Shown: one piece after another, positions 9,378-22,386 of the stretch | Numbering within the stretch: position 1 is the stretch's first letter | Layout: each line of letters opens with the position of its first letter | Assembly: GCA_903843045.1 (NCBI GenBank) | Contig: CAIMOJ010000017.1 | Location: forward strand, 1 to 54,038 | DNA length: 54,038 bases | Source of the DNA: Candidatus Uhrbacteria bacterium | GTDB taxonomy: Bacteria; Patescibacteriota; Patescibacteriia; UBA9934; GWF2-40-263 | Direction of reading: 5' to 3' | Position numbers and translations under genes: made by a program | Notes under the pieces: generated by a model | Database searches by the model: none | Told to the model about the DNA's origin: nothing | Seen by the model: only the letters and a program-made list of their open reading frames with translations

Positions 9378-9424
9378 TTGACAGCCTTTTCCCCCGGTGT
9401 TACTTTGTGTACATCAGACACAAA
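9378..9424 (+). promoter_or_regulatory. nrtR promoter with overlapping NrtR operator
   Basis: TTGACA(9378)-N17-TACTTT(9401); perfect palindrome TTTGTGT-N7-ACACAAA at 9404-9424 fits the known GT-N7-AC NrtR box. Confidence 0.8.
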
Positions 9425-9435
9425 CACTCCACCCT

Positions 9436-10113
9436 ATGACCCAACCCAAACAACCAGCCGAGCAAAGCATCAAGGTCGCCACGGACGCCGTGATCTTTAC
9501 CGTCCGGCGCGGGGAGCTCATGGCGCTTCTCATCCAGATGAAGAAGGTTCCGTACACCGGCAAGTGGGCCGTGCCGGGCGGGATCATCGGGCAGGCCGAG
9601 ACCACCGAGCAGGCGGCACGACGCATCCTGACGACGCAGACCGGGGTGAGCGACGCGCACCTCGAGCAGCTGGCGACGTTCGACGATCCGAAGCGCGACA
9701 AGCTCGGACGCGTGATCAGCGTGGCGTACGTGGCGCTCGTGGCGAGCGAGAAGGTGATCCTCAAGACGACCGAGAAGTACGCGGACGTGCGCTGGTGGCC
9801 GACGAGCAAATTGCCGGCGCTCGCGTACGACCACAAGGACATGGTCGCCGTGGCCGTCGATCGCCTGCGCGCGAAGCTCGAGTACACGAACGTGGCGTGG
9901 AGCCTGCTCCCTCCGCAGTTCACCCTGACCGAGCTGCAGGAGATCTACGAGATCATCCTCGGGCGGCCCGTCGACAAGCGCAACTTCCGGCGGCGCGTGC
10001 TCGACCTCGGCATCGTGGTCGGGACCGGGACCAAGCGGATGGGAGGCGCGCACCGTCCCGCGGAACTGTACGCATTCAAACGGCGAAGCATGGAATACAT
10101 CGAGGTGCTGTAA
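9436..10113 (+). CDS. nrtR: NrtR, Nudix-related ADP-ribose-responsive transcriptional regulator
   Basis: Degenerate Nudix box GG....ETTEQAARRIL, LAYDH, C-terminal wHTH FTLTELQEIYEIIL..DKRNFRRR..HRPAELY. Confidence 0.92.
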   Translation: MTQPKQPAEQSIKVATDAVIFTVRRGELMALLIQMKKVPYTGKWAVPGGIIGQAETTEQAARRILTTQTGVSDAHLEQLATFDDPKRDKLGRVISVAYVALVASEKVILKTTEKYADVRWWPTSKLPALAYDHKDMVAVAVDRLRAKLEYTNVAWSLLPPQFTLTELQEIYEIILGRPVDKRNFRRRVLDLGIVVGTGTKRMGGAHRPAELYAFKRRSMEYIEVL

Positions 10114-10159
10114 GCGCGGGGAAGGCGGCCGGCAAGGCCGCCTCTCTCCAGCCCGATTG

Positions 10160-10210
10160 TTCGTGTAACTTCTACATGAACATACCCCGTTCGTTCGGAT
10201 CGGACACGAA
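10160..10210. promoter_or_regulatory. NrtR operator(s) upstream of pncA
   Basis: TTCGTGT-N7-ACATGAA (10160-10180) and degenerate TTCGTTC-N7-ACACGAA (10190-10210). Confidence 0.65.
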
Positions 10211-10266
10211 GTGCGACAAATTTTTGCCAAGGCTGGTCATTTTTCCAGGATTCCTCTGGTTCCCCC

Positions 10267-10295
10267 TTGACGAAACCGAAGAAATTGGCTAATAT
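10267..10295 (+). promoter_or_regulatory. Promoter of the NAD operon
   Basis: TTGACG-N17-TAATAT. Confidence 0.65.
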
Positions 10296-10304
10296 CAGGC
10301 ACTC

Positions 10305-10363
10305 TTTGGAGTCTTTACCCAAGCCGCCCGCATCCCGCGGACGGCTAGGAAGAAGACTTCAAA
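10305..10363 (+). promoter_or_regulatory. Conserved intergenic stem-loop element E0
   Basis: tttggagtcttt pairs with gaagacttcaaa around the agccgcccgc/gcggacggct hairpin. Confidence 0.7.
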
Positions 10364-10375
10364 AAGGAGCGTTCC

Positions 10376-11140
10376 ATGTCGGCACCACACCCGATCGTTC
10401 GTACGGTCGAAGGCCCCATCATCATCAACGACGTCCTCTGGGCGGTCCTATCCGTGGACATCATGCGCACGTTCATGATGGGCGGCGGCCTCGGCGTACA
10501 GGGCGGACACGAGATCGTCCTTCCGGGTCTGAGGATGATCCGCAAGTTCAGCCGGGAATTCCGGTACGCACTGATGGACATCCACGCGCCCGGAAGCGTC
10601 TCCATCGTCACCAGCTTCGTCGGGTACGAGGCGTTCTACAAGCTCACCTATGACGAGGTGAAGGGGTGGACCCCGAAGAAGAACCGGATCGCCGCGCACG
10701 CGCGATTCACCCTGCGGGAGCTCAAGCGGTACCTGCGGAAGGTCGGCTTCCAGATCCTCTGGCCCGAACACGCGATGGAAGGTACGGACGAGGCCCGCGT
10801 GGAGCCCGAGATCCTCAACGAGTCAACGCTCCCGTGGTTCAAGGGCAACCGTCCGCACTCCGACTCGAATTCCGGATTCGAGGAGAACGACGGGCACGAC
10901 ATCGGTCTCGGCGCTCAGCTCTGGTGCCGAGGAATCAGGAAAATCGTGGTGTGGGGAATCGCGGGCGACGTCTGCGCGGGTCTCACGGCGCTGCACGGAG
11001 CCAAGCGGGGCTTCGAGGTCTACTTCGTCACCGACCTCTCGCCGTGCATCAGCCCCGAGGGCCGCGACGCGATGTACCAGCGTCTCATCGACGCCGGCGT
11101 CCACCTGATCACCTCCGACCAGATCCAGCAAGCGGCCTGA
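10376..11140 (+). CDS. pncA: Nicotinamidase (isochorismatase family)
   Basis: VDIM..F..GG.L.V.GG, DIH, WPEH..EGT, KG....DS.SGF, GIAGDVC. Confidence 0.85.
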   Translation: MSAPHPIVRTVEGPIIINDVLWAVLSVDIMRTFMMGGGLGVQGGHEIVLPGLRMIRKFSREFRYALMDIHAPGSVSIVTSFVGYEAFYKLTYDEVKGWTPKKNRIAAHARFTLRELKRYLRKVGFQILWPEHAMEGTDEARVEPEILNESTLPWFKGNRPHSDSNSGFEENDGHDIGLGAQLWCRGIRKIVVWGIAGDVCAGLTALHGAKRGFEVYFVTDLSPCISPEGRDAMYQRLIDAGVHLITSDQIQQAA

Positions 11141-11164
11141 CCGCTCTCCCCGAGACGCTCTCGG

Positions 11165-11211
11165 GACTTTTCTCCGGATGCTTGCGCCGTGCAGGCCGCC
11201 GAACAGAAGTC
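11165..11211 (+). promoter_or_regulatory. Conserved intergenic stem-loop element E1
   Basis: gactttt/agaagtc basal stem; preceded by cccgaga/tctcggg hairpin. Confidence 0.7.
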
Positions 11212-11234
11212 ACTCGGAACCAGGAGACCTTTCC

Positions 11235-12641
11235 ATGAACATCGTCCTATTTGGCACGAGCGCGAACCCGCCGACGCGGGCGCATCGGCTGGCCGCGGAA
11301 CAGCTTGCCAGGGTCTTTGACCGCGTGGTCGTGATTCCGTGCGGGATCCGTCCGGACAAGCACACGACCAACGTGGTGAGCGTGGTCCACCGGGCGCGGA
11401 TGTGCCAGATGGCATTTTCCGGGATCCCCAACGTCGAGATCGACCTGTCCGATCTCGAACGAACGGAATTCATGACGACCGTCGAGCTCGACCGCCACTG
11501 GAAGCGGCGCGAACCGGGCGCGGACATCTGGCACGCGGTCGGGTCCGACCTGATCCGCGGCGGACGAAGCGGCGCGTCGGACATCCAGCGCGAATGGCGC
11601 GAAGGCAGCACGGTCTGGCAGACTCTGCGCTTCGCGGTCATTCCGCGGCAGAGGTATCCGTTCTCCGACGACGATCTCCCGACGCTCGGGCGCGTCATGG
11701 CGTTCGAGATTCCGGACCATTCGAGCACGGAAGCGAGGCGTCTCCTGTCCTCCGGGCAGAACGCAAGCGACATCGTCTCGCGACGGGTGGCAGAGTATGC
11801 GCTGCGGTTCGGCCTGTACGGATTCGCTCCCGGCAGCCGGACGGAAGGGCGACTGCTTCTCCCGTCAGGCCCGAGTCTGTTCGTGGTCCCGGACCTGAAC
11901 AATCCGGCCGCCGTCCGCCGCGCACGGCGGCTGACCGGCCAGTGCGAACGGCCCGAGGACGCCGACATGATCGTGGCGATCGGCGGCGACGGTCACATGC
12001 TACACGTGATCCGGCAGACGCACCGGCATTGCGTCCCAATTCTCGGCCTCAACGCGGGCCACGTGGGATTCCTGCTCAACGAGCTGTCTCCCGAGGCGCT
12101 CAAGTCGCGCATCGCGGCCGGCGTTCCGTTCACCACGCACCTGCTCCCGATGCTCGCCGTGAGCATCCGGGGGATCGACGGAACGTGGGGCGACGAGCGG
12201 CTGGCATTCCAGGACGCATGGCTCGAGCGGTCCGGAGAGCAAACCGCGCGATTCAAGATCGGCGTCGAGGGACGGAGAACCCGCGCGTTCCAGATCACGT
12301 CCGACGCCATCCTCGGATCCAACCCCGCCGGATCCGGCGCGTATGCCGGCTCGATGGGCGCGCCGCTCATCCCGCTGAACTCCGCGTCCCTGATCCTCGC
12401 GGCCGGATGCGTGGCTCGTCCGAGAAACTGGACGCCAAAGCTGCTCGCAAACGGAACGCGCCTGACCTTCGAGGCGATGGAAACGGAAAAGCGTCCGGTC
12501 CGGGCGGTCATCGACGGATTGGGACACGGACCGGCAATCGGCATGCGCATCCGCCAGAGCGTGCTCGCCGGCGTGGAACTCGCCTTCGACCCGGAACTCA
12601 CGCTCGACCAGAAGATCGAGGACCTGTCCTTTCCAGCCTGA
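11235..12641 (+). CDS. nadD: Nicotinate-nucleotide adenylyltransferase (NadD) - NAD kinase (NadK) fusion
   Basis: N-terminal FGTSANPPTRAH, GSDL, SSTEAR; C-terminal IGGDG, GLNAGHVGFL, NPAGSGAY..SMGAP; AGGAG RBS. Confidence 0.85.
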   Translation: MNIVLFGTSANPPTRAHRLAAEQLARVFDRVVVIPCGIRPDKHTTNVVSVVHRARMCQMAFSGIPNVEIDLSDLERTEFMTTVELDRHWKRREPGADIWHAVGSDLIRGGRSGASDIQREWREGSTVWQTLRFAVIPRQRYPFSDDDLPTLGRVMAFEIPDHSSTEARRLLSSGQNASDIVSRRVAEYALRFGLYGFAPGSRTEGRLLLPSGPSLFVVPDLNNPAAVRRARRLTGQCERPEDADMIVAIGGDGHMLHVIRQTHRHCVPILGLNAGHVGFLLNELSPEALKSRIAAGVPFTTHLLPMLAVSIRGIDGTWGDERLAFQDAWLERSGEQTARFKIGVEGRRTRAFQITSDAILGSNPAGSGAYAGSMGAPLIPLNSASLILAAGCVARPRNWTPKLLANGTRLTFEAMETEKRPVRAVIDGLGHGPAIGMRIRQSVLAGVELAFDPELTLDQKIEDLSFPA

Positions 12642-12662
12642 CCCTTCCGAGACGCTCTCGGA

Positions 12663-12707
12663 TCTTTTCTCAGGAACCCCACCGCCGGTGGGGAGTCTGA
12701 CCGAAGA
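12663..12707 (+). promoter_or_regulatory. Conserved intergenic stem-loop element E2
   Basis: tcttttctcagg..ccccaccgccggtgggg..ctgaccgaaga; near-identical to E3. Confidence 0.75.
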
Positions 12708-12733
12708 CAACGTTCTTTTCAGGGAGACATTCC

Positions 12734-13798
12734 ATGTCATTCAGAGATCACATCGTCGGGTGCGCCGTCGGCGTCACCCTCGAGGCGCTCGGCGTCCCGC
12801 ACGAGACCATCACGCCCGAGGAAATCCTCGCGCTCACGAACGGCGCCGGGCTCACGGGGCTTCACCCCGCGCTCAAGCCGCCGGCGTTCCACAGCGTCAC
12901 GCGCATCCCGCTTGGCGGAACGTCCGACGACTGGCAGCTCTGGCGCGCGGTCGCGCGGTCGCTCATCGCCCGCAGGGGCGAGTTCGACGCGATCGACATG
13001 GGCCGCGAGCACGTGCTCGAGCTCAACCGCTGCACGGACGGATGGGGATCGAGCACCGAGGACGGCGCGCGACGCATCGAGCGCGCGCTCGACTTCGGCG
13101 GCATCGAGCGCCTCTACCCCGAAATCCCGCCGCGCACACCGCATCCTCCCATCCCGGGCGAGGATCCGAACGCGAAGGGATGCGGCAACGGCGTGGCCAT
13201 GAAGGTCGGCCCGCTCGCCATCGCGTCGCTCCGATTTGAGAGCCGCGACAGGTGGCTTTGGGAAAGCTGTCAGAAACTCGGCGAGCTCACCCACCCGAAC
13301 CCGCGCGCATGGATCGCGGCCTACGCCCTGGCCTGGTGCATTCGCGAGTGTCTGCACCGCGCCGAGATCGGAGAGAGGCCGTTCCGCGAGGGATGGGCCC
13401 CGGACGAGTTCCTCCACACGCTCCTCAACGTGATGACCTGTCACGAACCTGTCGGCGGAGATCGCGTGGAAGACCGGCTGCGCCGTCTCCGGCAGCCCGG
13501 CGTCCTCCGTTCGGCCGAGGCGCTTCGCGAGGCGACCGGAACGAGCTGCTACGCGCTCGAGTCCGTCCCGTTCGTCATCGGCACCTTCCTGCGCCATCCC
13601 GCGAACGTCCGCGCCGGAGTCCTCGAGACGCTGAACGCGGGCGGCGACACGGACACGAACGTGGGGATGTACGCCTCGCTCGCCGCCGCGAACGAAGGCT
13701 ATCGCGCGATCCCGAAGAAATGGCTCGCCCAGATCCCGAACTCCCGCCAGGCGTTCGCGCTCGGCGAGGCGCTCTACAATCTCCACGAGAGGCACTAG
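12734..13798 (+). CDS. ADP-ribosylglycohydrolase (DraG/ARH family)
   Basis: TSDDWQL, GNGVAMKVGP, LTH, GGDTDTN. Confidence 0.88.
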   Translation: MSFRDHIVGCAVGVTLEALGVPHETITPEEILALTNGAGLTGLHPALKPPAFHSVTRIPLGGTSDDWQLWRAVARSLIARRGEFDAIDMGREHVLELNRCTDGWGSSTEDGARRIERALDFGGIERLYPEIPPRTPHPPIPGEDPNAKGCGNGVAMKVGPLAIASLRFESRDRWLWESCQKLGELTHPNPRAWIAAYALAWCIRECLHRAEIGERPFREGWAPDEFLHTLLNVMTCHEPVGGDRVEDRLRRLRQPGVLRSAEALREATGTSCYALESVPFVIGTFLRHPANVRAGVLETLNAGGDTDTNVGMYASLAAANEGYRAIPKKWLAQIPNSRQAFALGEALYNLHERH

Positions 13799-13862
13799 CC
13801 TCCGTCCCTCAAGCCATTCTCGGCTTGTCCTCAATAGCTCCCGCTCAGGAGCGACGGAGGAA

Positions 13863-13907
13863 TCTTTTCTCAGGACCCCCACCGCCGGTGGGGAGCCTGA
13901 CCGAAGA
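13863..13907 (+). promoter_or_regulatory. Conserved intergenic stem-loop element E3
   Basis: Near-identical to E2. Confidence 0.75.
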
Positions 13908-13933
13908 CAATACCCTTTTCACAGGAGGCACAC

Positions 13934-15220
13934 ATGTGCATGGCACAACGCGGGCTGATCGAGGAAATTCTCGACGGTCCGGTCGTCGGCGGAATGCTCG
14001 ACGACGACTTCTACACCGAGACCATGGGACAGTTCGTCCACGAGCGTCACCCGGACGTCGAGGTCGTCCTCGGGCTGAAGAACCGCTCGAAGGAACGGCT
14101 CGCCGAATCGGTCGGCGAGAACGAGCTCGGCGACGAGCTGACGCGGCTGCAGGCCCGTCGCTTCACCAGGACGGAGCTGCACTACGTTCTCGGCACGGAC
14201 GAGTACGGCGACCGGATGTTCCGCACGCCGTACATCCGGCACCTCGAGGCGTTCCAGATGACGCCGTTCGACCTCTCCGCAAGGGACGGGCAGTTCCATC
14301 TCCAATTTCCCGGCCAATGGAAGTTCGCCATGCGCTGGGAGGTCCCGGCGCTCGCCACCATCAACGGGCTGCGGACGCGCAACCGCCTTCGCGGGATGTC
14401 CAGCGGGGAACGCGACCTCGTCATCGCGACCGGCATCACCCGGCTGTGGGAGAAAATCCGCACCATCAGGAAGTATCCGAAGCTCACGTTCACGGACTTC
14501 GGGACGCGGCGCAGATTCCACCGCGCGTGGCAGCGCTACGTCGTGAAGACCCTGCGCGACGAGCTTCCCGGCCAGTTCCTCGGCACCTCGAACACCGAGG
14601 CTGCCATGGACTTCGGCGTCATGCCGATGGGCACGAACGCGCACCAGCTCTACATGGTGATCGCGGCCATCCTGTCCGCCACGGACGAGAGCCTCGTCGC
14701 CTCCCACAACCTCGTGCTGCGCGAGTGGTGGAACCTGTACGGCTGGACGCTGTCGATCGCGCTCACCGACACCTTCGGGAGCGACTTCTTCTTCCGAGAC
14801 TTCACGGCCAAGCAGGCCGAGGAGTGGAAGGGCCTGCGCCAGGACTCCGGCGACCCGGTCGCGTTCGGGCACAAGGCGCTCGCGTTCTACCGCAAGCACG
14901 GCATCAACCCCATGGACAAGCTGCTGATCTTCAGCGACGGCCTCGACATGGAGATGATCGTCCGGCTGTGGCTCGAATTCGAGGGCCAGATCAAGGTGTC
15001 GTTCGGCTGGGGCACGCTTCTCACGAACGACCTCGGCCTCAGCGCGATCTCGATCGTCATCAAGGTCCTGGCCGCGCGCCTGAACGCGGATTCCCCGTGG
15101 GTGGGAACGGTGAAGCTCTCGGACAACATCGAGAAGGCGATGGGCTCCGCCGAGGACATCGAGCGATACAAGCGCGTCTTCCAGTACCTCACCACCTACG
15201 CCGCGGAGTGCCGCGTCTGA
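13934..15220 (+). CDS. pncB: Nicotinate phosphoribosyltransferase
   Basis: LDDDFY, DFGTRRR, GTSN, GTNAH, LTDTFG, GLRQDSGDP, FSDGLD, FGWGT, KLSD. Confidence 0.93.
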   Translation: MCMAQRGLIEEILDGPVVGGMLDDDFYTETMGQFVHERHPDVEVVLGLKNRSKERLAESVGENELGDELTRLQARRFTRTELHYVLGTDEYGDRMFRTPYIRHLEAFQMTPFDLSARDGQFHLQFPGQWKFAMRWEVPALATINGLRTRNRLRGMSSGERDLVIATGITRLWEKIRTIRKYPKLTFTDFGTRRRFHRAWQRYVVKTLRDELPGQFLGTSNTEAAMDFGVMPMGTNAHQLYMVIAAILSATDESLVASHNLVLREWWNLYGWTLSIALTDTFGSDFFFRDFTAKQAEEWKGLRQDSGDPVAFGHKALAFYRKHGINPMDKLLIFSDGLDMEMIVRLWLEFEGQIKVSFGWGTLLTNDLGLSAISIVIKVLAARLNADSPWVGTVKLSDNIEKAMGSAEDIERYKRVFQYLTTYAAECRV

Positions 15221-15235
15221 GCGAGACCGTCTCGC

Positions 15236-15289
15236 TTCTTTTCTCCAGGCAACGAGCGCATTCCGCGTTCGCTGCCTCGAGGTGAAGAA
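15236..15289 (+). promoter_or_regulatory. Conserved intergenic stem-loop element E4 (3' strand includes SD GAGGTG)
   Basis: ttcttttctccaggc...gcctcgaggtgaagaa. Confidence 0.7.
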
Positions 15290-16231
15290 ATGGCTCTTCT
15301 CAACAGACTGCTTTTGTTGGCGACTCCCGAGATGGAGGCGGTGGCATGGACGATCAAGGCGACCGCGGCGTTCCAGGTGGACGTCGAGGTCCTTGAGTGG
15401 GACCGGCGGTTTCCGGACGGGTTTCCCGACCAGAGGATCGTGTCGCCCCTGCGCGGCAGGGACGTCTGCGTCCTCGCGTCGTTCCATTCGCCCGACGCGA
15501 TCGAGCGGCAGTCCGGCATCATCTGCGCGATCCCTCGCTTCGGCTCGCGGTCGCTGCGCGTGGTGGCGCCGTACTTTCCCGGGACGATGGAGCGCGTTCG
15601 GAAGCCCGGCGAAATCGCCACGGCCATGACGTACGCGCGGCAGTTGTCGGCGACGCCGGCCTGTCGAATCGGCGGCATGGCGGAGTTCGTCTTCTACGAC
15701 ATCCACCAGACCGGCATCCAGTTCTACTTCGGCGACGGCGTGGCCGTCCGACTGGAGACGGCGATCCCGCTGCTCAAGTCACGCCTGCACACGCTCGGAT
15801 TCTACGAGCGGGAAACCCTGGTCATGTTCCCCGACGACGGGGCGCACAAGCGGTTCGGCGACGACTTTCCCGAGTTCGACCAGGGAATCTGCGCGAAGGT
15901 TCGCGGCGAGGGCGACGAGCGAATCGTCCGCCTGATCTGCGGGAATCCGCGCGGCTGCAAGGTCGTGGTCGTCGACGACCTGATCCAGCGCGGAGGGACG
16001 ATGATCGAGACGGGGAAGCTCATGCGCGACCTGGGCGCGACCGACGTGATCGGCTTCGCCACGCACTTCGTGGGCCCCGACTTTGCCGAAGCCCGCTTCG
16101 TGCCGAACGAACCGTTCTCCCGCGTGATCGTCACCGATTCGCATCCGTCCGCGGCCCGCGTCGACATTCGCGAGCCGTTCGAAGTCCTTTCGCTCGGCGC
16201 AGCGATCGCAGCCATCATCCGCGAGGAATGA
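15290..16231 (+). CDS. prs: Ribose-phosphate pyrophosphokinase, class II (plant PRS3/4-like)
   Basis: FPDG, PYFPGTMER..GEIATA, YDIH, FPDDGAHKRF, KVRGEGDERIVRL..GNP.G..VVVVDDLIQRGGT, ATH. Confidence 0.88.
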   Translation: MALLNRLLLLATPEMEAVAWTIKATAAFQVDVEVLEWDRRFPDGFPDQRIVSPLRGRDVCVLASFHSPDAIERQSGIICAIPRFGSRSLRVVAPYFPGTMERVRKPGEIATAMTYARQLSATPACRIGGMAEFVFYDIHQTGIQFYFGDGVAVRLETAIPLLKSRLHTLGFYERETLVMFPDDGAHKRFGDDFPEFDQGICAKVRGEGDERIVRLICGNPRGCKVVVVDDLIQRGGTMIETGKLMRDLGATDVIGFATHFVGPDFAEARFVPNEPFSRVIVTDSHPSAARVDIREPFEVLSLGAAIAAIIREE

Positions 16232-16232
16232 C

Positions 16233-16790
16233 ATGTTCAGACTATTCGCAACGCTCTACACCGGCTTCGTCTCGCTCGAGGCGTGGGCCCGCGGGAATGA
16301 GACCAAACCGATCCTCGTCGTCCGATCGACGGACTCGTGCTCCGGCCTTCTCTACGACCGACCGCGCAACCGCGTCCTCCTCGTTCGCCAGAACCGCGCG
16401 CCGATGGTGCGCGATGACAATCCCGACGGCTCCATCGTCGAGCTCGTCGCCGGACGCTTCGACCGCGCGGTCGGACCGAAGGCGCTGTTCGTCGCCGAGG
16501 CAAAGGAGGAAGCCGGCGCGAATATCACGGAAGAAGACGTGGAGCTCCTGAACGGCGGCCGGCCGATGGCCCCGTCGCCCGGAATCCTCACCGAGCGCTG
16601 CACCCTGGCCTTCGTCGAGATTCGCGAGGAGCATCTCGACGCGGGAGAAACGTTCGGCGTCGCTGCCGAGCACGAGGTCACCAATCGCGAGTGGATGTCC
16701 GTCCAAGGTTTCCTCTCCGGCCCGCACGATGACCTCCGCGTCTACACGCTCGCGCGCGAGCTCGAGTGCAGACTCCTTCGGAAGCGCTGA
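16233..16790 (+). CDS. Nudix hydrolase, ADP-ribose pyrophosphatase (NudF/NudK)-like
   Basis: VLLVRQNRAP, ELVAG, EAKEEAG, SPGILTE; starts immediately after the prs stop. Confidence 0.8.
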   Translation: MFRLFATLYTGFVSLEAWARGNETKPILVVRSTDSCSGLLYDRPRNRVLLVRQNRAPMVRDDNPDGSIVELVAGRFDRAVGPKALFVAEAKEEAGANITEEDVELLNGGRPMAPSPGILTERCTLAFVEIREEHLDAGETFGVAAEHEVTNREWMSVQGFLSGPHDDLRVYTLARELECRLLRKR

Positions 16791-16797
16791 CGCTTCC

Positions 16798-16851
16798 GTC
16801 TTTTCTCCAGGACTCGATCGCATTCCGCGCTCAAGTCCTCAAGGTGAAGAT
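16798..16851 (+). promoter_or_regulatory. Conserved intergenic stem-loop element E5
   Basis: gtcttttctccaggact...agtcctcaaggtgaagat. Confidence 0.7.
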
Positions 16852-17901
16852 ATGACGTCCCCAACCAACGTTCTCATGATCGGCGATTTCGGAAAGGACC
16901 TGGACGACGAGTTCGCCCTGCTCCTTGCCGTGGCGCTCGAGCGGCTCGGATACATTCGCCTGCTCGGCGTCGTCGCGAACCTCGCGCCGGCAATCGAGCG
17001 CGCGCGGCTTGCGAAGGGCACGCTTCAGACCCTCGGGCTCGGGCGCGTCCCGGTCGCGATCGGACGGCCCGTCACCGACGCGGGACGAACCTGCCCGCAC
17101 GATACGACCGTCCCGTATCTCGCCGACGCGTCCGAGCTGTCGGGCGAGGGGATCGACCTGATGCGACGGGTCCTCTCGGAAGCGGACGACCGCTCGGTCA
17201 CGCTCGTCCTGAATAGCGCGTTCACGGACGCCGCCGCGCTCGCCCGATCGAGCCCCGATCTGTTCCTGAGCCGCGTCTCCCACGTCGCCATCATGGGCGG
17301 CGTTACTGAGCGCGACGGACGTCTCGTTCCGGACGACGCCGCCAACAACGCGTTCGACCCGGCCGCGGCCGAGTTCCTCTACCGCTGGCTCCAGGACAAT
17401 CGCGTCCCGACCACGGTCGTGATGCGCGAGGCGGCCTACGCGTGCCAGATGGCCGCGTGGCTTCCCGTGAAGCTCGCCGAGATCGGGCACCCGGTGGGCC
17501 TCTCCCTCGCGCGTCGGCTTCCGCTCGTGATGGACGACCTCTGGGAGGCGGTCCACGCGCCAATCGGCTCGCCGATCCGCGGGACGCTCCCGCCCTCGCG
17601 GACCCGGGACTGGTACGTTCGCACCACCACCGGCAACAAGGACCCGGGCGTGCCGGGCGACGAGACCGTCTGGCCGTTCGTGGAAACGTTCCGCCTGTAT
17701 GACCCGATGAACCTCCTCGCCGCCGTGCCGGAACTCGCGGACCGGTTCTATGACGCCGATACGTTCACGGTGAACGGCACCGCGCACAAGGTCATCGGGC
17801 GCACCAAGGAATGCAACGGCATCCGCGACCCGCTGGCCCTCCGCGAAACCCTCGCGCAGTTCGCCACCGAGGCGCTTGCCCCGTTCGCCGGCGAGGACTA
17901 G
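16852..17901 (+). CDS. Inosine/uridine-preferring nucleoside hydrolase family protein
   Basis: DFGKDLDDE, IMGGV, ANNAFD, LYDP. Confidence 0.8.
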   Translation: MTSPTNVLMIGDFGKDLDDEFALLLAVALERLGYIRLLGVVANLAPAIERARLAKGTLQTLGLGRVPVAIGRPVTDAGRTCPHDTTVPYLADASELSGEGIDLMRRVLSEADDRSVTLVLNSAFTDAAALARSSPDLFLSRVSHVAIMGGVTERDGRLVPDDAANNAFDPAAAEFLYRWLQDNRVPTTVVMREAAYACQMAAWLPVKLAEIGHPVGLSLARRLPLVMDDLWEAVHAPIGSPIRGTLPPSRTRDWYVRTTTGNKDPGVPGDETVWPFVETFRLYDPMNLLAAVPELADRFYDADTFTVNGTAHKVIGRTKECNGIRDPLALRETLAQFATEALAPFAGED

Positions 17902-17950
17902 CTCCTCCTCGCCTTGTCCTCCATAGCTCCCGCTCAGGGGCGACGTAGGA

Positions 17951-17994
17951 CTCTTTCTCCCGGCCGCCGAATCGTCGACGCCCGGGACCGAAGA
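17951..17994 (+). promoter_or_regulatory. Conserved intergenic stem-loop element E6
   Basis: ctctttctcccgg...ccgggaccgaaga. Confidence 0.65.
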
Positions 17995-18011
17995 AATGCA
18001 AGGATACCCTC

Positions 18012-18932
18012 ATGCAACTGCGAGCTCTTTCCCTTTCGATCATGACGAGCGACCGCGAGAACTGCAACGCGGGATGCCAGTTCTGCATCTCGCGAACCAC
18101 CCCGGGCGACGTCATCGACCCGCGCGAACCGAAGCACTGCTCCGAGGCGCGGCTCCAGGTCGCGCTCGGCTACGCGAAGGCGCTCGGCGCCACGCACGGG
18201 ATCCTGACCGGCAAGGCCGACCCCACGCAGGAGAAGCCCGAGTACCTGTGCGGGCTGGTGCGAAGCGTCCGCCAGCACCTTCCACTGTGCGACATGCACA
18301 CGAACGGCTTCCTGCTGCACCCGGGCAAGAACCGCGAGCACCTGCTCGCGGGGCTCGTGGACGCGGGCCTCACGATGGTCACGCTCTCAATCGCAAGCTT
18401 CGACGAGGACGGGAACCGCGAGCTCATGGGCATCCGCCAGAGCGCCGCGGAGCTCATCCCCCTCGCGCGCGAGCTCGGCCTCATGGTCCGGTGCTCGCTC
18501 GTGGTCTGCAAGGGCGGAGCGAGCAACACCGATGAGGTGCTCGCGTACGTGCGACAAGCCGGCGAGCTCGGCGCCCAGTCCGTGGTCGTCCGCGAGGTGT
18601 GGCGCCCCGAGGTGCTCACCCCGGTGAACGAGCGCGTCTACGCGTGGAACCACGAGAACGCCATCGAGATCCAGCCCATCGAGGACGATATCGCGGATAT
18701 CGCGGAAACCAAGGGGAACCCGCACAGTCTCCACAAGCTCTACACGCTGCCGTGGGGCCGCAAGGTGTTCGCGTTCGGCGAAGGGACCTTCCGTGACCCG
18801 AGCCACGCCGTGCAGGTCGTCGTCTCCACGAGCGGAGACAACTTCCGCGGTGGTACCTACCAGACCCTCGTCCTCCGCCCCGACGGCAACGTCTACGGCG
18901 GATGGGAAAGCAAGGGCTCCATCCTCGCCTGA
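18012..18932 (+). CDS. Radical SAM protein
   Basis: CNAGCQFC (CX3CX2C), TGKADP, HTNG, LSIAS. Confidence 0.88.
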   Translation: MQLRALSLSIMTSDRENCNAGCQFCISRTTPGDVIDPREPKHCSEARLQVALGYAKALGATHGILTGKADPTQEKPEYLCGLVRSVRQHLPLCDMHTNGFLLHPGKNREHLLAGLVDAGLTMVTLSIASFDEDGNRELMGIRQSAAELIPLARELGLMVRCSLVVCKGGASNTDEVLAYVRQAGELGAQSVVVREVWRPEVLTPVNERVYAWNHENAIEIQPIEDDIADIAETKGNPHSLHKLYTLPWGRKVFAFGEGTFRDPSHAVQVVVSTSGDNFRGGTYQTLVLRPDGNVYGGWESKGSILA

Positions 18933-18980
18933 TCGCGACCGTCGCGGTCTTGTCCTCCGAAGCTCGCCGAGCAATGAGGA

Positions 18981-19026
18981 CTCTTTTCTCCAGCCGCCGA
19001 AATCCTCGGCGGCTGGATCCAAGGAG
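18981..19026 (+). promoter_or_regulatory. Conserved intergenic stem-loop element E7 (3' strand is SD AAGGAG)
   Basis: ctcttttctccagccgccga/tcggcggctggatccaaggag. Confidence 0.7.
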
Positions 19027-19031
19027 ATTGA

Positions 19032-20141
19032 ATGCCACGCTTCAGCAACGTCCTCTTCGTCGGAACCGGCGGGGGAAACGACATCTTCTCGACAGCGCTC
19101 GCGATGCTTTCGCTTCGCCGGGCAGGGTACGAGTGGGATTCCTGCTCCGTCGCGGGAGTGCTCAGCCCGTTCCATCGTTACCGCGGACTGACTCGAACGG
19201 AATGCAAGCACGTCGATTCCATTCCCGACCGGGAAATCAAGCGCATCGTGCCGTGCCTCGTGGACGTCATCGAGCTCGACATGGTCGAACGAACGGTCGC
19301 GTCGCTCGCCCGGGCCGAACGGGACCTGAACGTCGGCGCGGTCTACGGACTGTCGCTGACCGAGGGAACGAGCGGTCTGGAGGAAGCGTTCCGCTGGCTC
19401 GCGTCCACGCATGACTTCGTTGTGCTCGTGGACATCGGCGGCGACATCCTGTTCCGCGGGTTCGATACGGATCCGCGCGTGCTTTCCCCGATGTTCGACG
19501 CGATGGTCCTCGAGGCGTTCTGCGCGTCCGGAGCGCCGGGCATCCTGTTCGAGGCCGGCCCGGGAACGGACGGCGAGATCAGCCCCGGGTCGCTCAAGGA
19601 AACGCTCCTTGACCCGACGGTTCAGAGCTGTCCGCTCGCGGCGTCCGTCGTCGACGAATGGGATCGGCTGTTCCGAACGCACGTCGAACCCGTCCGTGCC
19701 GGCCGCACGGTCCCGAAGACCATCGAGGCATTCCGGTCCGAACGGCCATCGCTCACCCTCGACTACCGCGCGCGATGCCACCTTGGCAAGCGGCGCTGGT
19801 ACGCGACGTTTCCCCACGAGATCGACACGGCCCTGAACCGTTCCTTCTACCTCGTCCCTCCCAAGTGGGCGCGACGCCGCAACCCCTTCTGCGTTCCCTG
19901 CCGATCCGTTGAGGAATGGATCGGGATGACGCGGCAGCCGGGCTGCCATGTCAACGGGGAGTTCCAGTTCGAATATCTGACCGCGGACAGGAGCGTCTGG
20001 CTCCTTGCGCTCCCGTCCCCGCTGTTCACGCCCGACCAGCGGAAGGAGATGGTCGACGCGGCATTCGAGGACGCGCGCCGCGGCAACTGCCACGGCGTGA
20101 TCGTCGACGGCCCGGAAGGCCTGGTCTGCCGCACTTCGTGA
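19032..20141 (+). CDS. DUF1152-like protein
   Basis: GTGGGNDI, VDIGGDIL, GPGTDGE motifs. Confidence 0.7.
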   Translation: MPRFSNVLFVGTGGGNDIFSTALAMLSLRRAGYEWDSCSVAGVLSPFHRYRGLTRTECKHVDSIPDREIKRIVPCLVDVIELDMVERTVASLARAERDLNVGAVYGLSLTEGTSGLEEAFRWLASTHDFVVLVDIGGDILFRGFDTDPRVLSPMFDAMVLEAFCASGAPGILFEAGPGTDGEISPGSLKETLLDPTVQSCPLAASVVDEWDRLFRTHVEPVRAGRTVPKTIEAFRSERPSLTLDYRARCHLGKRRWYATFPHEIDTALNRSFYLVPPKWARRRNPFCVPCRSVEEWIGMTRQPGCHVNGEFQFEYLTADRSVWLLALPSPLFTPDQRKEMVDAAFEDARRGNCHGVIVDGPEGLVCRTS

Positions 20142-20155
20142 TCCGGCTCGGATCA

Positions 20156-20209
20156 CTCTTTTCTCCAGCCCTCGAGCGCATGTCGCGCTCGAGGGCTCGA
20201 AACGAAGAG
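20156..20209 (+). promoter_or_regulatory. Conserved intergenic stem-loop element E8
   Basis: ctcttttctccagccctcgagcgc/gcgctcgagggct..gaagag. Confidence 0.7.
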
Positions 20210-20233
20210 CACCTTACACTCGGAGAAAACAAC

Positions 20234-22270
20234 ATGGGAACCAAGCCCTACATCGTTCGCGGTCGCAGCAAGACGCTCGGGTTCGCCCGGGTCTCGCTCG
20301 CCACCTTCTGGACCAAGGCCATGGACGTGCCCGGCAACCTCACCAAGCACATCGAGATGGCATTCGCGGCCGAGGAGGCCGGCGCGCAGATCTGCGCGTT
20401 TCCGGAGCTCGGAATTTCCGGGTACAACTGCAAGCAGGCCTTTCGCGACCGCATGATCCAGGTTGCCTCGCTCGAGGCGCTTCGCACGTTCTGCGTGCGG
20501 ACGTCCTCGAGCCGGACCGTATTCGTGGTCGGACTGCCGCTCGCGCTGGAGAAGATCTTCAACGTGGCGGTGTTCGTGAGCCACGGCAAGGTCATCGCGA
20601 TCATGCCGAAGAGCTACCTCGCCGCGCGCGGCGAATGGCAGGAAGGCGACTACTTCTCCGCGGCCAAGGAGCTCTCGCAAACCGAGATCAAGCTCGACTG
20701 GCAGGAGGAGATGGTTCCGATCGGCACGGACATCCGCGTCCAGGTGCTCGACGAGAACGAACAGCCGCAGTTCGTGACCGCGGCGGAGATCTGCGAGGAC
20801 GGCTGGCAGAGCAACTCGCCCGGCGACCGTCACGCGCACAACGGCGCGCACGTCATTGCGAACCTGTCCGCGTCCAACTGGATCCTCGGCAAGGACAGCT
20901 GGAGGCGCGTGACGTTCCCGGCCAGCTCGGGTCGGCAGAAGTCGGTGTACCTCTATGCCACCGGCGCGGATTCCACCTCCTCCGTAGTGTGGGACCAGCA
21001 CTGCATGATCATCGAGGACGGCGCGATTCTCGGCGAGACCAAGCGCTGGACCGTTCCGCAGAAGGACCCGCCCGAGCTGCTCGTGCGCGACGTGGACATC
21101 GACAAGCTGATCCACGACCGCCAGGCCGACGGCGGCTGGAACGCGGCCGCGGAGGCCAACAGGCACCCGTACCGGGACGTCGTCACGCACGCGCGCGGCT
21201 ACGTCCCGAACGCGAAGGACTTTCGGCGCCCGCTCACGCGGCTGCCGTTCGTCCCCGCGGACCCGGCGGCCATGAAGCGCGTGGGCGAGGAGCTGTTCAA
21301 CGCCCTCACGCAGGGCCTGCTCGGCCGCGCGATCCACGTCACGGGAAGCATCGAGCGCCCGCTCGACGGCTACATGGGCCTGTCGGGAGGATTGGACTCG
21401 GCCCTCGCGTTCATCCTCTGCTGCGTCGGCTACGACCGCGCCGGCTGGAGCCGCACGCACATGTACGCGGTGCGGATGCCCGGCCCCGGGTCGAGCAAGC
21501 ACACCCAGAACGATTCGCTGCGGCTCGCGGAAGCCATGGGCGCGTCGATTGAGACCGTGGACATCACCGAGATGGCCGCTACCGACCTGCGCGCCACCGG
21601 CCACGAGCCGTGCTGGGACTGCGAGAAGTGCGAGAACGCGCAGGCCCGCGTCCGCACGCTCGTCCTCAAGACCTTCGGGTTCAACTGGGGAACAGGCGAC
21701 ATGGACGAGGGCGCGAAGGGCTGGTGCACCGAGGGCGGCGACCAGTCGAGCATGTGGCACGTCATCGCCAACATGCCGAAGACGCTGGTGCGGTTCCTGG
21801 TGCTCTACTTCATCGAGTACCTGGCAACCCCGGAGGAACGCAAGTCCCTCCGGAGCATCCTGCGCACGGTGATCTCTCCGGAGCTCCGCAAGCGCAAGCC
21901 CGGCCAGAAGGCGCAGGCGTCGGAAGACAAGATGGGGCCCTACGACCTCACCGGATTCTTCCTCTACCACATCCTCCGCACCGGCGGGGAACCGGAGCGC
22001 ATCGCGTTCCTCGCGGAAGTCGCGTTCGGACGCGCCGAGCGCTCCGTGAAGGACGCGATCTACGACCGCCGCATGATTCTGCGATGGCTCAGGGACTTCT
22101 ACGTGAAGTTCAACTGGTCGCAGTTCAAGCGCCAGACCGCGCCCGACTCGTCGCTCACCGGCTCGATCGGCCTCGGCCAGCACGACAAGCTCCGCTGGCC
22201 CACCGACGGCTCGTCCGTCGTCTGGTCAAACGAGTGCGACCGCCTCATCGCCGAGCTCGGCACGGCATGA
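20234..22270 (+). CDS. nadE: Glutamine-dependent NAD+ synthetase
   Basis: Nitrilase triad motifs FPEL/PKSYL/EICED; SGGLDS; ENAQAR; GTGD; SPEL. Confidence 0.93.
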   Translation: MGTKPYIVRGRSKTLGFARVSLATFWTKAMDVPGNLTKHIEMAFAAEEAGAQICAFPELGISGYNCKQAFRDRMIQVASLEALRTFCVRTSSSRTVFVVGLPLALEKIFNVAVFVSHGKVIAIMPKSYLAARGEWQEGDYFSAAKELSQTEIKLDWQEEMVPIGTDIRVQVLDENEQPQFVTAAEICEDGWQSNSPGDRHAHNGAHVIANLSASNWILGKDSWRRVTFPASSGRQKSVYLYATGADSTSSVVWDQHCMIIEDGAILGETKRWTVPQKDPPELLVRDVDIDKLIHDRQADGGWNAAAEANRHPYRDVVTHARGYVPNAKDFRRPLTRLPFVPADPAAMKRVGEELFNALTQGLLGRAIHVTGSIERPLDGYMGLSGGLDSALAFILCCVGYDRAGWSRTHMYAVRMPGPGSSKHTQNDSLRLAEAMGASIETVDITEMAATDLRATGHEPCWDCEKCENAQARVRTLVLKTFGFNWGTGDMDEGAKGWCTEGGDQSSMWHVIANMPKTLVRFLVLYFIEYLATPEERKSLRSILRTVISPELRKRKPGQKAQASEDKMGPYDLTGFFLYHILRTGGEPERIAFLAEVAFGRAERSVKDAIYDRRMILRWLRDFYVKFNWSQFKRQTAPDSSLTGSIGLGQHDKLRWPTDGSSVVWSNECDRLIAELGTA

Positions 22271-22278
22271 CCGCATCT

Positions 22279-22306
22279 CCCGCTTCGTCTCGAAGCGGGT
22301 TTTTCT
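22279..22306 (+). terminator. Terminator closing the NAD operon
   Basis: cccgcttcg/cgaagcggg plus TTTTTT. Confidence 0.8.
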
Positions 22307-22386
22307 ATGGGACGATTCGCCTCGTCGACTCGTTGACAGCCCTCCGCTCGCCTGCTACATTCCACCCGCTTCCAAGGTGGAATCTC

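Follow-up and report, generated by a model that had tools for sequence, protein, structure and literature searches.

Two-hairpin spacers between the genes of an NAD-salvage operon and of other accessory operons in Uhrbacteria-like Patescibacteria

The stretch analysed here, hereafter called the window, comprises 54,038 nucleotides of DNA from a Candidatus Uhrbacteria bacterium (GenBank assembly GCA_903843045.1, contig CAIMOJ010000017.1, forward strand) and corresponds to contig C17 of a 1.28-Mb genome (G000) with 61% GC that is 96% complete. It carries an operon for NAD salvage in which nearly every gene is preceded by a copy of the same hairpin element, and this element is the subject of our analysis. 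Ten co-oriented genes occupy positions 10376-22270 in the order pncA-like, nadD-nadK fusion, ADP-ribosylglycohydrolase, pncB, prs-like, Nudix-like, nucleoside hydrolase, radical SAM, DUF1152 and nadE, while the gene of an NrtR-type regulator precedes them at 9397-10113. The Nudix-like open reading frame (ORF) has no Pfam match and was named after homologous ORFs of related NAD operons. The sequencing runs listed for this DNA are six DNA runs from two studies, with no RNA run among them. In a consensus scan a single promoter-like site was reported for the operon (TTGACG, 17 nt, TAATAT), which is also kept in a relative (L001/L055), and none was reported in any of the eight spacers described below, so that the downstream genes need transcriptional read-through.

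Each of these eight spacers is composed of two adjacent hairpins. The first one, hairpin A, sits on or just past the stop codon of the upstream gene and directly abuts a pyrimidine tract, which reads (T/A)CTTT(T/C/A)CTC(C) in the window and YCTTT-Y-Y-YC as a consensus over the 72 copies collected from this and related genomes. The second one, hairpin B′, starts in the tract itself, as its outer stem of 5-7 bp pairs TCTTT with GAAGA or a variant thereof (AAGGA, GAAGT, GAGGA), and above this stem an internal loop is followed by one or two GC-rich inner stems of copy-specific sequence. The motif is 50-60 nt in length. A ninth copy, E0, starts a few bases past the promoter and consists of B′ only. 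A first-pass annotation of this DNA had placed nine copies before the genes of the operon, and all of them were located at those positions; its further observations that a GC hairpin precedes E1-E8 and is absent from E0, and that the Nudix gene is the one without a copy, were borne out as well, the prs-Nudix junction (16231/16233) having none. The features of the operon, with z-scores relative to dinucleotide shuffles and scores of the covariance model R1 in bits, are the following:

10267-10295, plus strand: promoter-like site, TTGACG, 17 nt, TAATAT, with 9 of 12 consensus positions
10308-10360, plus strand: E0, B′ in the 5′ leader of pncA, without hairpin A; -30 kcal/mol, z -5.5; model R1 52.5 bits
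11149-11165, plus strand: hairpin A after pncA, terminator-like, then ACTTTTCTCC
11162-11214, plus strand: E1, B′ before nadD-nadK; outer stem GACTTTT/AGAAGTC; z -1.7; 44.7 bits
12646-12662, plus strand: hairpin A after nadD-nadK
12659-12711, plus strand: E2, B′ before the ADP-ribosylglycohydrolase gene; z -2.4; 53.8 bits
13828-13861, plus strand: hairpin A after the ADP-ribosylglycohydrolase gene, of the long TCCTC...GAGGA type, with another hairpin upstream
13859-13911, plus strand: E3, B′ before pncB; z -4.5; 61.8 bits
15221-15235, plus strand: hairpin A after pncB, beginning right behind the TGA stop
15233-15292, plus strand: E4, B′ before the prs-like gene; z -4.5; purine strand GGTGAAGAA reaching into the ATG, gap from element end to start -3
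16779-16798, plus strand: hairpin A after the Nudix gene, with the TGA stop in its loop
16795-16854, plus strand: E5, B′ before the nucleoside hydrolase gene; z -3.6; purine strand reaching into the ATG
17912-17949, plus strand: hairpin A after the nucleoside hydrolase gene, of the long GTCCT...AGGAC type
17948-17998, plus strand: E6, B′ before the radical SAM gene; z -1.9; 43.6 bits
18952-18981, plus strand: hairpin A after the radical SAM gene, of the GTCCTC...GAGGAC type, with another hairpin at 18931-18949
18978-19029, plus strand: E7, B′ before DUF1152; outer stem CTCTTT/AAGGAG, the latter being the Shine-Dalgarno site; z -5.7; 52.5 bits
20138-20156, plus strand: hairpin A after DUF1152, with the TGA stop in its 5′ arm
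20153-20212, plus strand: E8, B′ before nadE; z -6.5
22279-22309, plus strand: ordinary strong terminator closing the operon after nadE, a 9-bp stem then TTTTT, with no B′ behind it

Since the purine strand of E4 runs into the ATG, the ribosome site of the prs-like gene lies within the stem. Downstream of E8, GGAGAAAA at 20222-20229 exactly complements TTTTCTCC of the tract. E2 and E3 are near-identical even though they precede two unrelated genes of one operon, a likeness in sequence that suggests recent duplication or gene conversion between units.

As the first-pass annotation had predicted, the TCTTT-type tract is paired with the GAAGA-type run around the inner GC hairpin in the minimum-energy fold of all nine window copies. 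The z-scores of these copies against dinucleotide shuffles range from -1.7 to -6.5, and five of the nine were unmatched by any of 200 shuffles. The exact word CTTTTCTC occurs seven times in the 54-kb window, each time on the plus strand and inside one of these spacers; with one mismatch allowed there is no enrichment in the window (38 observed, 33.7 expected). Across the 1.28-Mb genome, TCTTTTCTC was counted 20 times, six of them within the NAD operon.

A search of the whole window against Rfam at gathering thresholds returned no family, and over 10250-20300 with E values up to 5 only chance-level hits to CRISPR-DR29 (E 1.4) and mir-3747 (E 4.4) appeared. Neither of the known NAD riboswitch classes was matched, in agreement with the first-pass annotation. 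A literature search at abstract level, with supplementary motif lists beyond its scope, found no description of the motif. Covariance model R1, built from 16 copies, gave 12 gene-strand matches in the genome itself, namely the nine of the NAD operon and three more on contig C3 in an operon of small hypothetical genes, next to three weak matches and reverse-strand echoes. When the nine spacers were compared with the genome by blastn-short, only five 16-nt matches were obtained outside the operon, two of which are C3 copies. The motif is therefore not an ordinary genome-wide repetitive extragenic palindrome (REP), a check that the first-pass annotation had called for, and a spread of the REP or MITE (miniature inverted-repeat transposable element) kind is ruled out by the five blastn matches together with the uniform sense orientation.

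Matches to the model were found in 20 of 73 genomes of the same family, representing 9 of 29 genera, and were mostly clustered on one contig; with a second model, matches were obtained in 14 of 65 genomes within the family, compared with 1 of 85 genomes from the order's other families. From 106 matches in the clusters that were fetched, we retained 72 gene-strand copies from 15 genomes after dropping 34 rows that were reverse-strand echoes of true copies, partial matches or the weakest matches. All 72 are on the gene strand, 70 of them between a stop and a start codon and two as operon leaders, and in 71 a downstream ORF starts at a distance of -3 to +35 nt, counted from the end of the element. 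A 15-mer of the tract also matches at least 116 viral contigs, once each. Over 80 listed viral loci (765 kb) the model yielded one weak match (E 0.003), a result that doubles as a control of its specificity, and a viral origin is rejected as far as this narrow 15-mer and model test reaches.

The emphasis on NAD that was implied when only the window was considered did not hold up. About 48 of the 72 copies are in loci with NAD-salvage genes, a share that is inflated because the model was trained mainly on NAD-operon copies, and about 24 are in loci without NAD genes, including the three C3 copies and others in non-NAD operons of relatives. The neighbours in the latter group encode an ABC permease, an AAA ATPase, a nucleoside phosphorylase, an adenylosuccinate synthetase, an AstE-like enzyme and many ORFs without a Pfam match. 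A model match adjoins pncB in 10 of the 19 pncB loci of the family. Six of the remaining nine were read by eye and unscored, and five of these show a hairpin, a CTTTTC-type tract, a second hairpin and a purine run in at least one spacer; two of the loci read by eye also carry a different repeated hairpin. Within one family of Uhrbacteria-like Patescibacteria, the module is common property of a set of accessory operons and has no tie to NAD. Its restriction to this lineage and its presence in unrelated operons of related bacteria mean that it probably serves as general mRNA punctuation and not as an NAD sensor.

The structure is conserved beyond the window. In an alignment of 45 copies (A3), which comprises gene-strand copies only at a cut-off of E 8e-6 that excludes the strongest reverse-strand echo (E 8.2e-6), 89.8% of the cells pair compared with 72.2 ± 1.0% in shuffles, a value that none of 500 shuffles reached, and sliding the partner by one to three columns lowers the pairing to 38-56%. 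With all 72 copies, 87.5% pair against 68.8% in shuffles. Double-sided changes occur at all ten pairs of the inner helix in the 45 copies, which substantiates the earlier claim that the upper stems vary in sequence yet keep pairing. The accompanying claim of covarying flanking pairs stood in part: the first pair outside the 5-bp core is marginally positive over 72 copies (20 of 72 versus 13.8 ± 2.7 in shuffles, equalled by 25 of 2000), whereas the next three positions beyond the outer stem gave no pairing signal. Between E7 and its orthologue, which is a single case, a T-to-C substitution within the tract goes along with a C-to-G substitution by which an outer stem of 5 bp is regained in a shifted register. 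It is only in the pyrimidine tract that letters are conserved, and the terminal loops as well as the 3′ side of the internal loop vary. Single examples gave the impression that B′ moves with the gene downstream of it and hairpin A with the gene upstream. Similarity between copies was therefore compared systematically with that of their neighbours, with the restriction that crude ORF calls were used in which some starts are wrong and the radical SAM and DUF1152 genes of the window were missed: among 67 best cross-genome matches of B′ only the downstream neighbour was homologous in 9, only the upstream one in 5, both in 10 and neither in 43, and the corresponding figures for 38 best matches of hairpin A were 4, 6, 6 and 22.

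The first-pass annotation had correctly described the element as repeated, sense-oriented, structurally conserved and placed before genes, and it had missed that hairpin A and the tract together have the form of a terminator. If hairpins with 5 bp or more and a folding energy of -5 kcal/mol or lower are counted, one ends no more than 2 nt from the tract in 67 of the 72 copies (66 of the 70 intercistronic ones), where the "hairpin A" counted for E0 is untranscribed promoter DNA. Its median length is 8 bp and its median stability -10.7 kcal/mol, and in 47 of the 67 copies the stop codon lies inside it or within 10 nt before it. The tract has 5-6 T among its first 8 letters in 61 of 72 copies, with the longest T-run measuring just 3-4 in 65 of 72. 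Judged by this composition, a GC hairpin with a U-rich tract past a stop codon, hairpin A and the tract would qualify as an intrinsic terminator, and five of the eight hairpin A sites of the window pass a terminator consensus scan. In this they resemble leaky intrinsic terminators within operons, which likewise consist of a GC hairpin and a U-rich tract over or past the stop codon. The host also makes wide use of hairpin-plus-T-run terminators, with 439 canonical sites genome-wide under the criteria used. Passages of PMC8355165 put on record "clusters" of two adjacent hairpins past stop codons, and here, too, two adjacent hairpins are found at most 15 nt apart. According to passages of PMC4824070, a terminator a few bases past a gene is almost fully repressed by the ribosome. 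The spacers differ from leaky terminators in their short U-run and in occurring at up to nine junctions per operon, and they differ from a plain terminator model, with termination here being itself predicted, in that the U-tract and a purine run or ribosome site are both engaged in a second hairpin. At the end of the C3 operon (L006 5380-5476, minus strand), the last unit keeps hairpin A, the tract and hairpin B, while TTTTCTTTTT replaces the purine run and a true T-run stands behind hairpin B. Hairpin A plus tract would thus seem insufficient by themselves to stop transcription, and hairpin B looks like the real terminator of that operon.

On the downstream side the purine strand often coincides with the ribosome site. 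The start codon is found no more than 6 nt past the element end in 36 of 71 copies, which puts the purine strand at the Shine-Dalgarno position; 17 copies have a gap of at least 15 nt, and their ribosome site is a separate one located downstream. The overlap that the first-pass annotation had noted for a few window copies thus extends to half of all copies, a breadth it had not recognised. In RNA thermometers of the FourU type a U-rich strand masks the Shine-Dalgarno site, and similarly a run of U with C pairs the Shine-Dalgarno sequence through A-U and G-U pairs at the hairpin base right before the start in these 36 copies. Unlike in FourU elements, half of the copies have their ribosome site outside the helix, and the structure, for which no link to temperature is known, stands between cistrons and is coupled to a hairpin of the terminator type. 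The ribosome site would accordingly appear to be masked in many copies and not in all.

The anatomy, position and orientation of the spacer, its conserved structure with compensatory changes, its distribution and its lack of a link to any single gene family are established, and from these we infer its functional effects. We tentatively favour a composite intercistronic punctuation module that would act on the transcript and in which a leaky, ribosome-gated terminator is joined to a 5′ leader hairpin tying up the tract and often the ribosome site. For the upstream gene, hairpin A with its short-U-run tract would terminate part of the transcripts, to a lesser extent while a ribosome is on the stop codon, and the transcripts ending there would keep a stable 3′ hairpin. 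For the downstream gene, the basal stem of B′ is predicted to pair the tract with a GAAGA/AAGGAG-type purine run 0-25 nt before the start, so that B′ would sequester the tract in read-through transcripts and, in about half of the copies, may hold the Shine-Dalgarno sequence in a weak A-U/G-U helix that sets the ease of translation for each cistron. At the first gene, B′ would be situated at the very 5′ end of the mRNA and could act as a stabiliser; a terminal 5′ stem-loop is a classical mRNA stabiliser. The net effect would be a stepwise, gene-by-gene tuning of mRNA level and translation within one long operon, in an organism whose genome, at 96% completeness, gave no match to the Rho RNA-binding domain.

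Several observations weigh against this module. The outer helix is 87% paired, but a double change is seen at only one of its five pairs, and in 12 of the 45 copies a C stands opposite a non-G. Because U pairs with A or G, pairing in the outer helix is largely a matter of composition, which mostly explains it, and the pairing figures come from alignments fitted to the model, a procedure that favours structure. The two strands fold about equally well (-22.9 kcal/mol sense versus -23.4 kcal/mol antisense, the sense strand being better in 29 of 72 copies, p = 0.20), and neither G-U counts nor fold energies of the 72 copies showed a strand asymmetry, a null result that neither supports nor excludes a role as RNA. 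The fold alone consequently proves no RNA-level role and names no strand, and the argument for one is drawn from orientation and from the association with stop codons, start codons and ribosome sites. Furthermore, hairpin A stands at no fixed distance from the stop codon, more than 10 nt separating the two in 20 of 67 copies, and a ribosome site downstream of the helix in 35 of 71 copies means that masking is no universal role. Finally, partial termination alone leaves unexplained why B′ should pair with the tract.

It is this last point that transcript processing, an alternative already put forward in the first-pass annotation for an RNase III-like enzyme, would explain best. If RNase III, or RNase J, cut the bulged B′ helix of roughly 17-22 bp at each junction, monocistrons ending in hairpin A and beginning at or near the freed ribosome site would result, and the tract pairing would be what makes the helix long enough. 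We rank this possibility second after leaky termination and consider it unlikely, though both the anatomy and the set of RNases would accommodate it. Irregular, long and interrupted by internal loops, the B′ helix lies exactly between cistrons, and E0, with B′ and without hairpin A, has the look of a processed downstream product. The genome has two RNase III-domain genes (C8:3355-3627 and C7:3994-4266) and RNase J, and in this 96% complete genome no match was found for RNase E/G or for RNase Y, the latter probed by the model of its N-domain only; few other endonucleases would thus be at hand. A double-strand cut within B′ would, however, strip the 5′ hairpin off the downstream product, so that the notion of a hairpin-protected 5′ end fails. 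The helices are moreover short and interrupted, with 15-22 pairs and internal loops, a length that is borderline in several copies for an RNase III site of about two turns, and some are weak (z -1.7 and -1.9). The early polycistronic mRNA of phage T7 carries RNase III processing signals between its genes, and the spacers share with it the bulged hairpins with common flanks, one per junction of a long polycistron, together with the presence of RNase III genes; by analogy, the upstream product would retain a hairpin after cleavage, and the ribosome site that follows would become accessible. The spacers differ from the T7 signals in belonging to cellular accessory operons and in having a separate terminator-like hairpin before each, and among the 80 listed viral contigs that share the 15-mer of the tract only the one weak model match (E 0.003) was found. 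An extended version, which we regard as distinctly unlikely, takes the unit as dedicated punctuation that RNase III (or RNase J) would cut at every junction of certain accessory operons to give hairpin-capped monocistrons with unmasked ribosome sites, while the junction would also let cassettes move between operons; it would be a cellular parallel to the punctuation known from T7 early mRNA and from mitochondria. Less probable still, in our judgement, is that the spacers are evolutionary leftovers of stitched units which kept a decayed terminator and a leader hairpin, the complementarity of a U-rich tail and a purine-rich ribosome site being incidental. The operon is indeed accessory, with pncB in 19 of 73 genomes of the family and, within the genus, in four of the eight other genomes, and it is mosaic, as gene order and content vary among five genomes of the genus (the window versus L055, L038, L039 and L040) and identities between G000 and G068 range from 93% for pncB to 42% for pncA, 36% for the ADP-ribosylglycohydrolase and 31% for nadD; the weak covariation of the outer stem and the folding without strand asymmetry would suit leftovers, too. 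Leftovers would not be expected to keep their layout across at least nine genera with compensatory changes at all ten inner pairs, to retain the purine run despite a separate downstream ribosome site (35 of 71 copies), to exchange hairpin A for another hairpin between close relatives instead of losing it (E4 versus U4) or to restore a 5-bp outer stem as seen for E7 and its orthologue.

The same mosaic could alternatively point to DNA, with the tract serving as a site or hotspot of recombination through which operons exchange gene cassettes, in parallel to an integron attC site without integrase. Conservation is highest exactly where the hairpin of the upstream gene meets that of the downstream gene, operon content has been reshuffled between close relatives with a unit at nearly every junction, one operon contains the near-identical pair E2 and E3, and strand-symmetric folding is expected of a DNA palindrome. 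We nevertheless hold this reading to be very improbable, since the elements are always sense-oriented and tied to stop and start codons and ribosome sites, their similarity clearly tracks neither neighbour (neither being homologous in 43 of the 67 best matches), and homologous recombination between any repeats would yield the same shuffling as a by-product. The three tyrosine recombinases of the genome, detected as Phage_integrase matches, are encoded on contigs C42, C67 and C46 and none on C17, and an integron attC site was ruled out on the latter ground; the core of attC sites also differs from the pyrimidine tract and purine run. REP and BIME elements are the intercistronic repeats of enterobacteria, and Correia repeat-enclosed elements of Neisseria can, as passages of PMC2649163 state, bind RNase III and be cleaved or protected. 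Both resemble the present element as short transcribed palindromes that form hairpins between cistrons and for which effects on the stability of neighbouring mRNA have been proposed. They differ from it in abundance, orientation and uniformity, as there are just 12 gene-strand matches in the 1.28-Mb genome, nine of them in one operon and always in sense orientation, and the copies differ in sequence with pairing kept by compensatory changes instead of being near-identical insertions. The least credible of the readings, hardly to be expected from the data, is an NAD-specific riboregulator that would respond to NAD+, ADP-ribose or nicotinamide, or be bound by NrtR, and control each gene separately, as the first-pass annotation had proposed in part with NAD or ADP-ribose as ligand. 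What speaks for it are the roughly 48 of 72 copies in NAD-salvage loci next to an NrtR gene and the model match adjoining pncB in 10 of 19 family pncB loci. The proposal is not supported, however, as about 24 copies are in loci without an NAD gene and the NAD share is inflated by the training of the model, no Rfam riboswitch was matched, and NrtR has a winged helix that binds DNA, for which a palindrome upstream of the promoter is the better operator candidate. Tract aside, no unpaired nucleotides are conserved, which makes a ligand pocket, and hence a ligand riboswitch, unlikely. According to passages of PMC6859854 and PMC7749635, the nadA motif (NAD+-I) is found only upstream of nadA and the pnuC motif (NAD+-II) almost only with pnuC. 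The trait shared with these riboswitches is the association with genes of NAD metabolism; unlike them, the present element has no Rfam match up to E 5, stands before nearly every gene of its operon and occurs in non-NAD operons as well. Compared with all of these systems, it adds a lineage-restricted form to the intercistronic structures of known kinds and is not a new riboswitch class.

Almost nothing is known about the control of gene expression after transcription start in bacteria of the candidate phyla radiation, and the present data define a searchable motif of 50-60 nt with 72 examples, compensatory changes and up to nine copies per operon that is absent from Rfam. If termination, processing or translation is indeed adjusted gene by gene, as the favoured punctuation module would have it, the spacers would illustrate how stoichiometry is tuned in the long operons of a Rho-less organism of about 1.3 Mb, and they would provide natural insulator parts. 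A third class of NAD riboswitch is an attractive lead that is probably wrong. Independently of these considerations, the data document an NAD-salvage operon that is accessory and linked to NrtR, and whose set of genes has been shuffled between close relatives.

Beyond the 72 copies, contig C51 carries a third operon (L007 6230-9590), in which a Ro60-like TROVE/vWA gene comes first and hypothetical genes follow; its genes are set apart by a sister element with a CTTTTCTC core and a like layout. At each junction read, the order is a hairpin, CCCTCCCTTTTCTCGACGA, a second hairpin, GGAAGGGAGG and the start codon, and CCCTCCCTT is paired with AAGGGAGG, which is the ribosome site, so that this site is always in the outer stem at those junctions. 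A different repeated intercistronic hairpin, also after a terminator-like hairpin, was observed in two NAD operons of the relatives G014 and G044, twice in L058 and once in L059, respectively; it has an A-rich 5′ and a T-rich 3′ flank and reads AAA(G)ACCTG-x-GCTC... ...GAG-x-C(C/T)AGAT(C)TTT. Within the NAD operon of the window, the 468-aa ORF at 11235-12641 joins a cytidylyltransferase-like (nadD-type) N-terminal part to an NAD kinase domain, and this fusion recurs in several related operons (L038, L041, L057, L058 and L061). Between the NrtR gene and the operon promoter, an inverted repeat of the 10-5-10 type is found at 10158-10182 (TGTTCGTGTA ... TACATGAACA) with 9 of 10 arm positions complementary, which we regard as a candidate NrtR operator. 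A similar inverted repeat is present at the same place in the relative L001, and more distant NAD operons (L002 and L003) carry other palindromes upstream.

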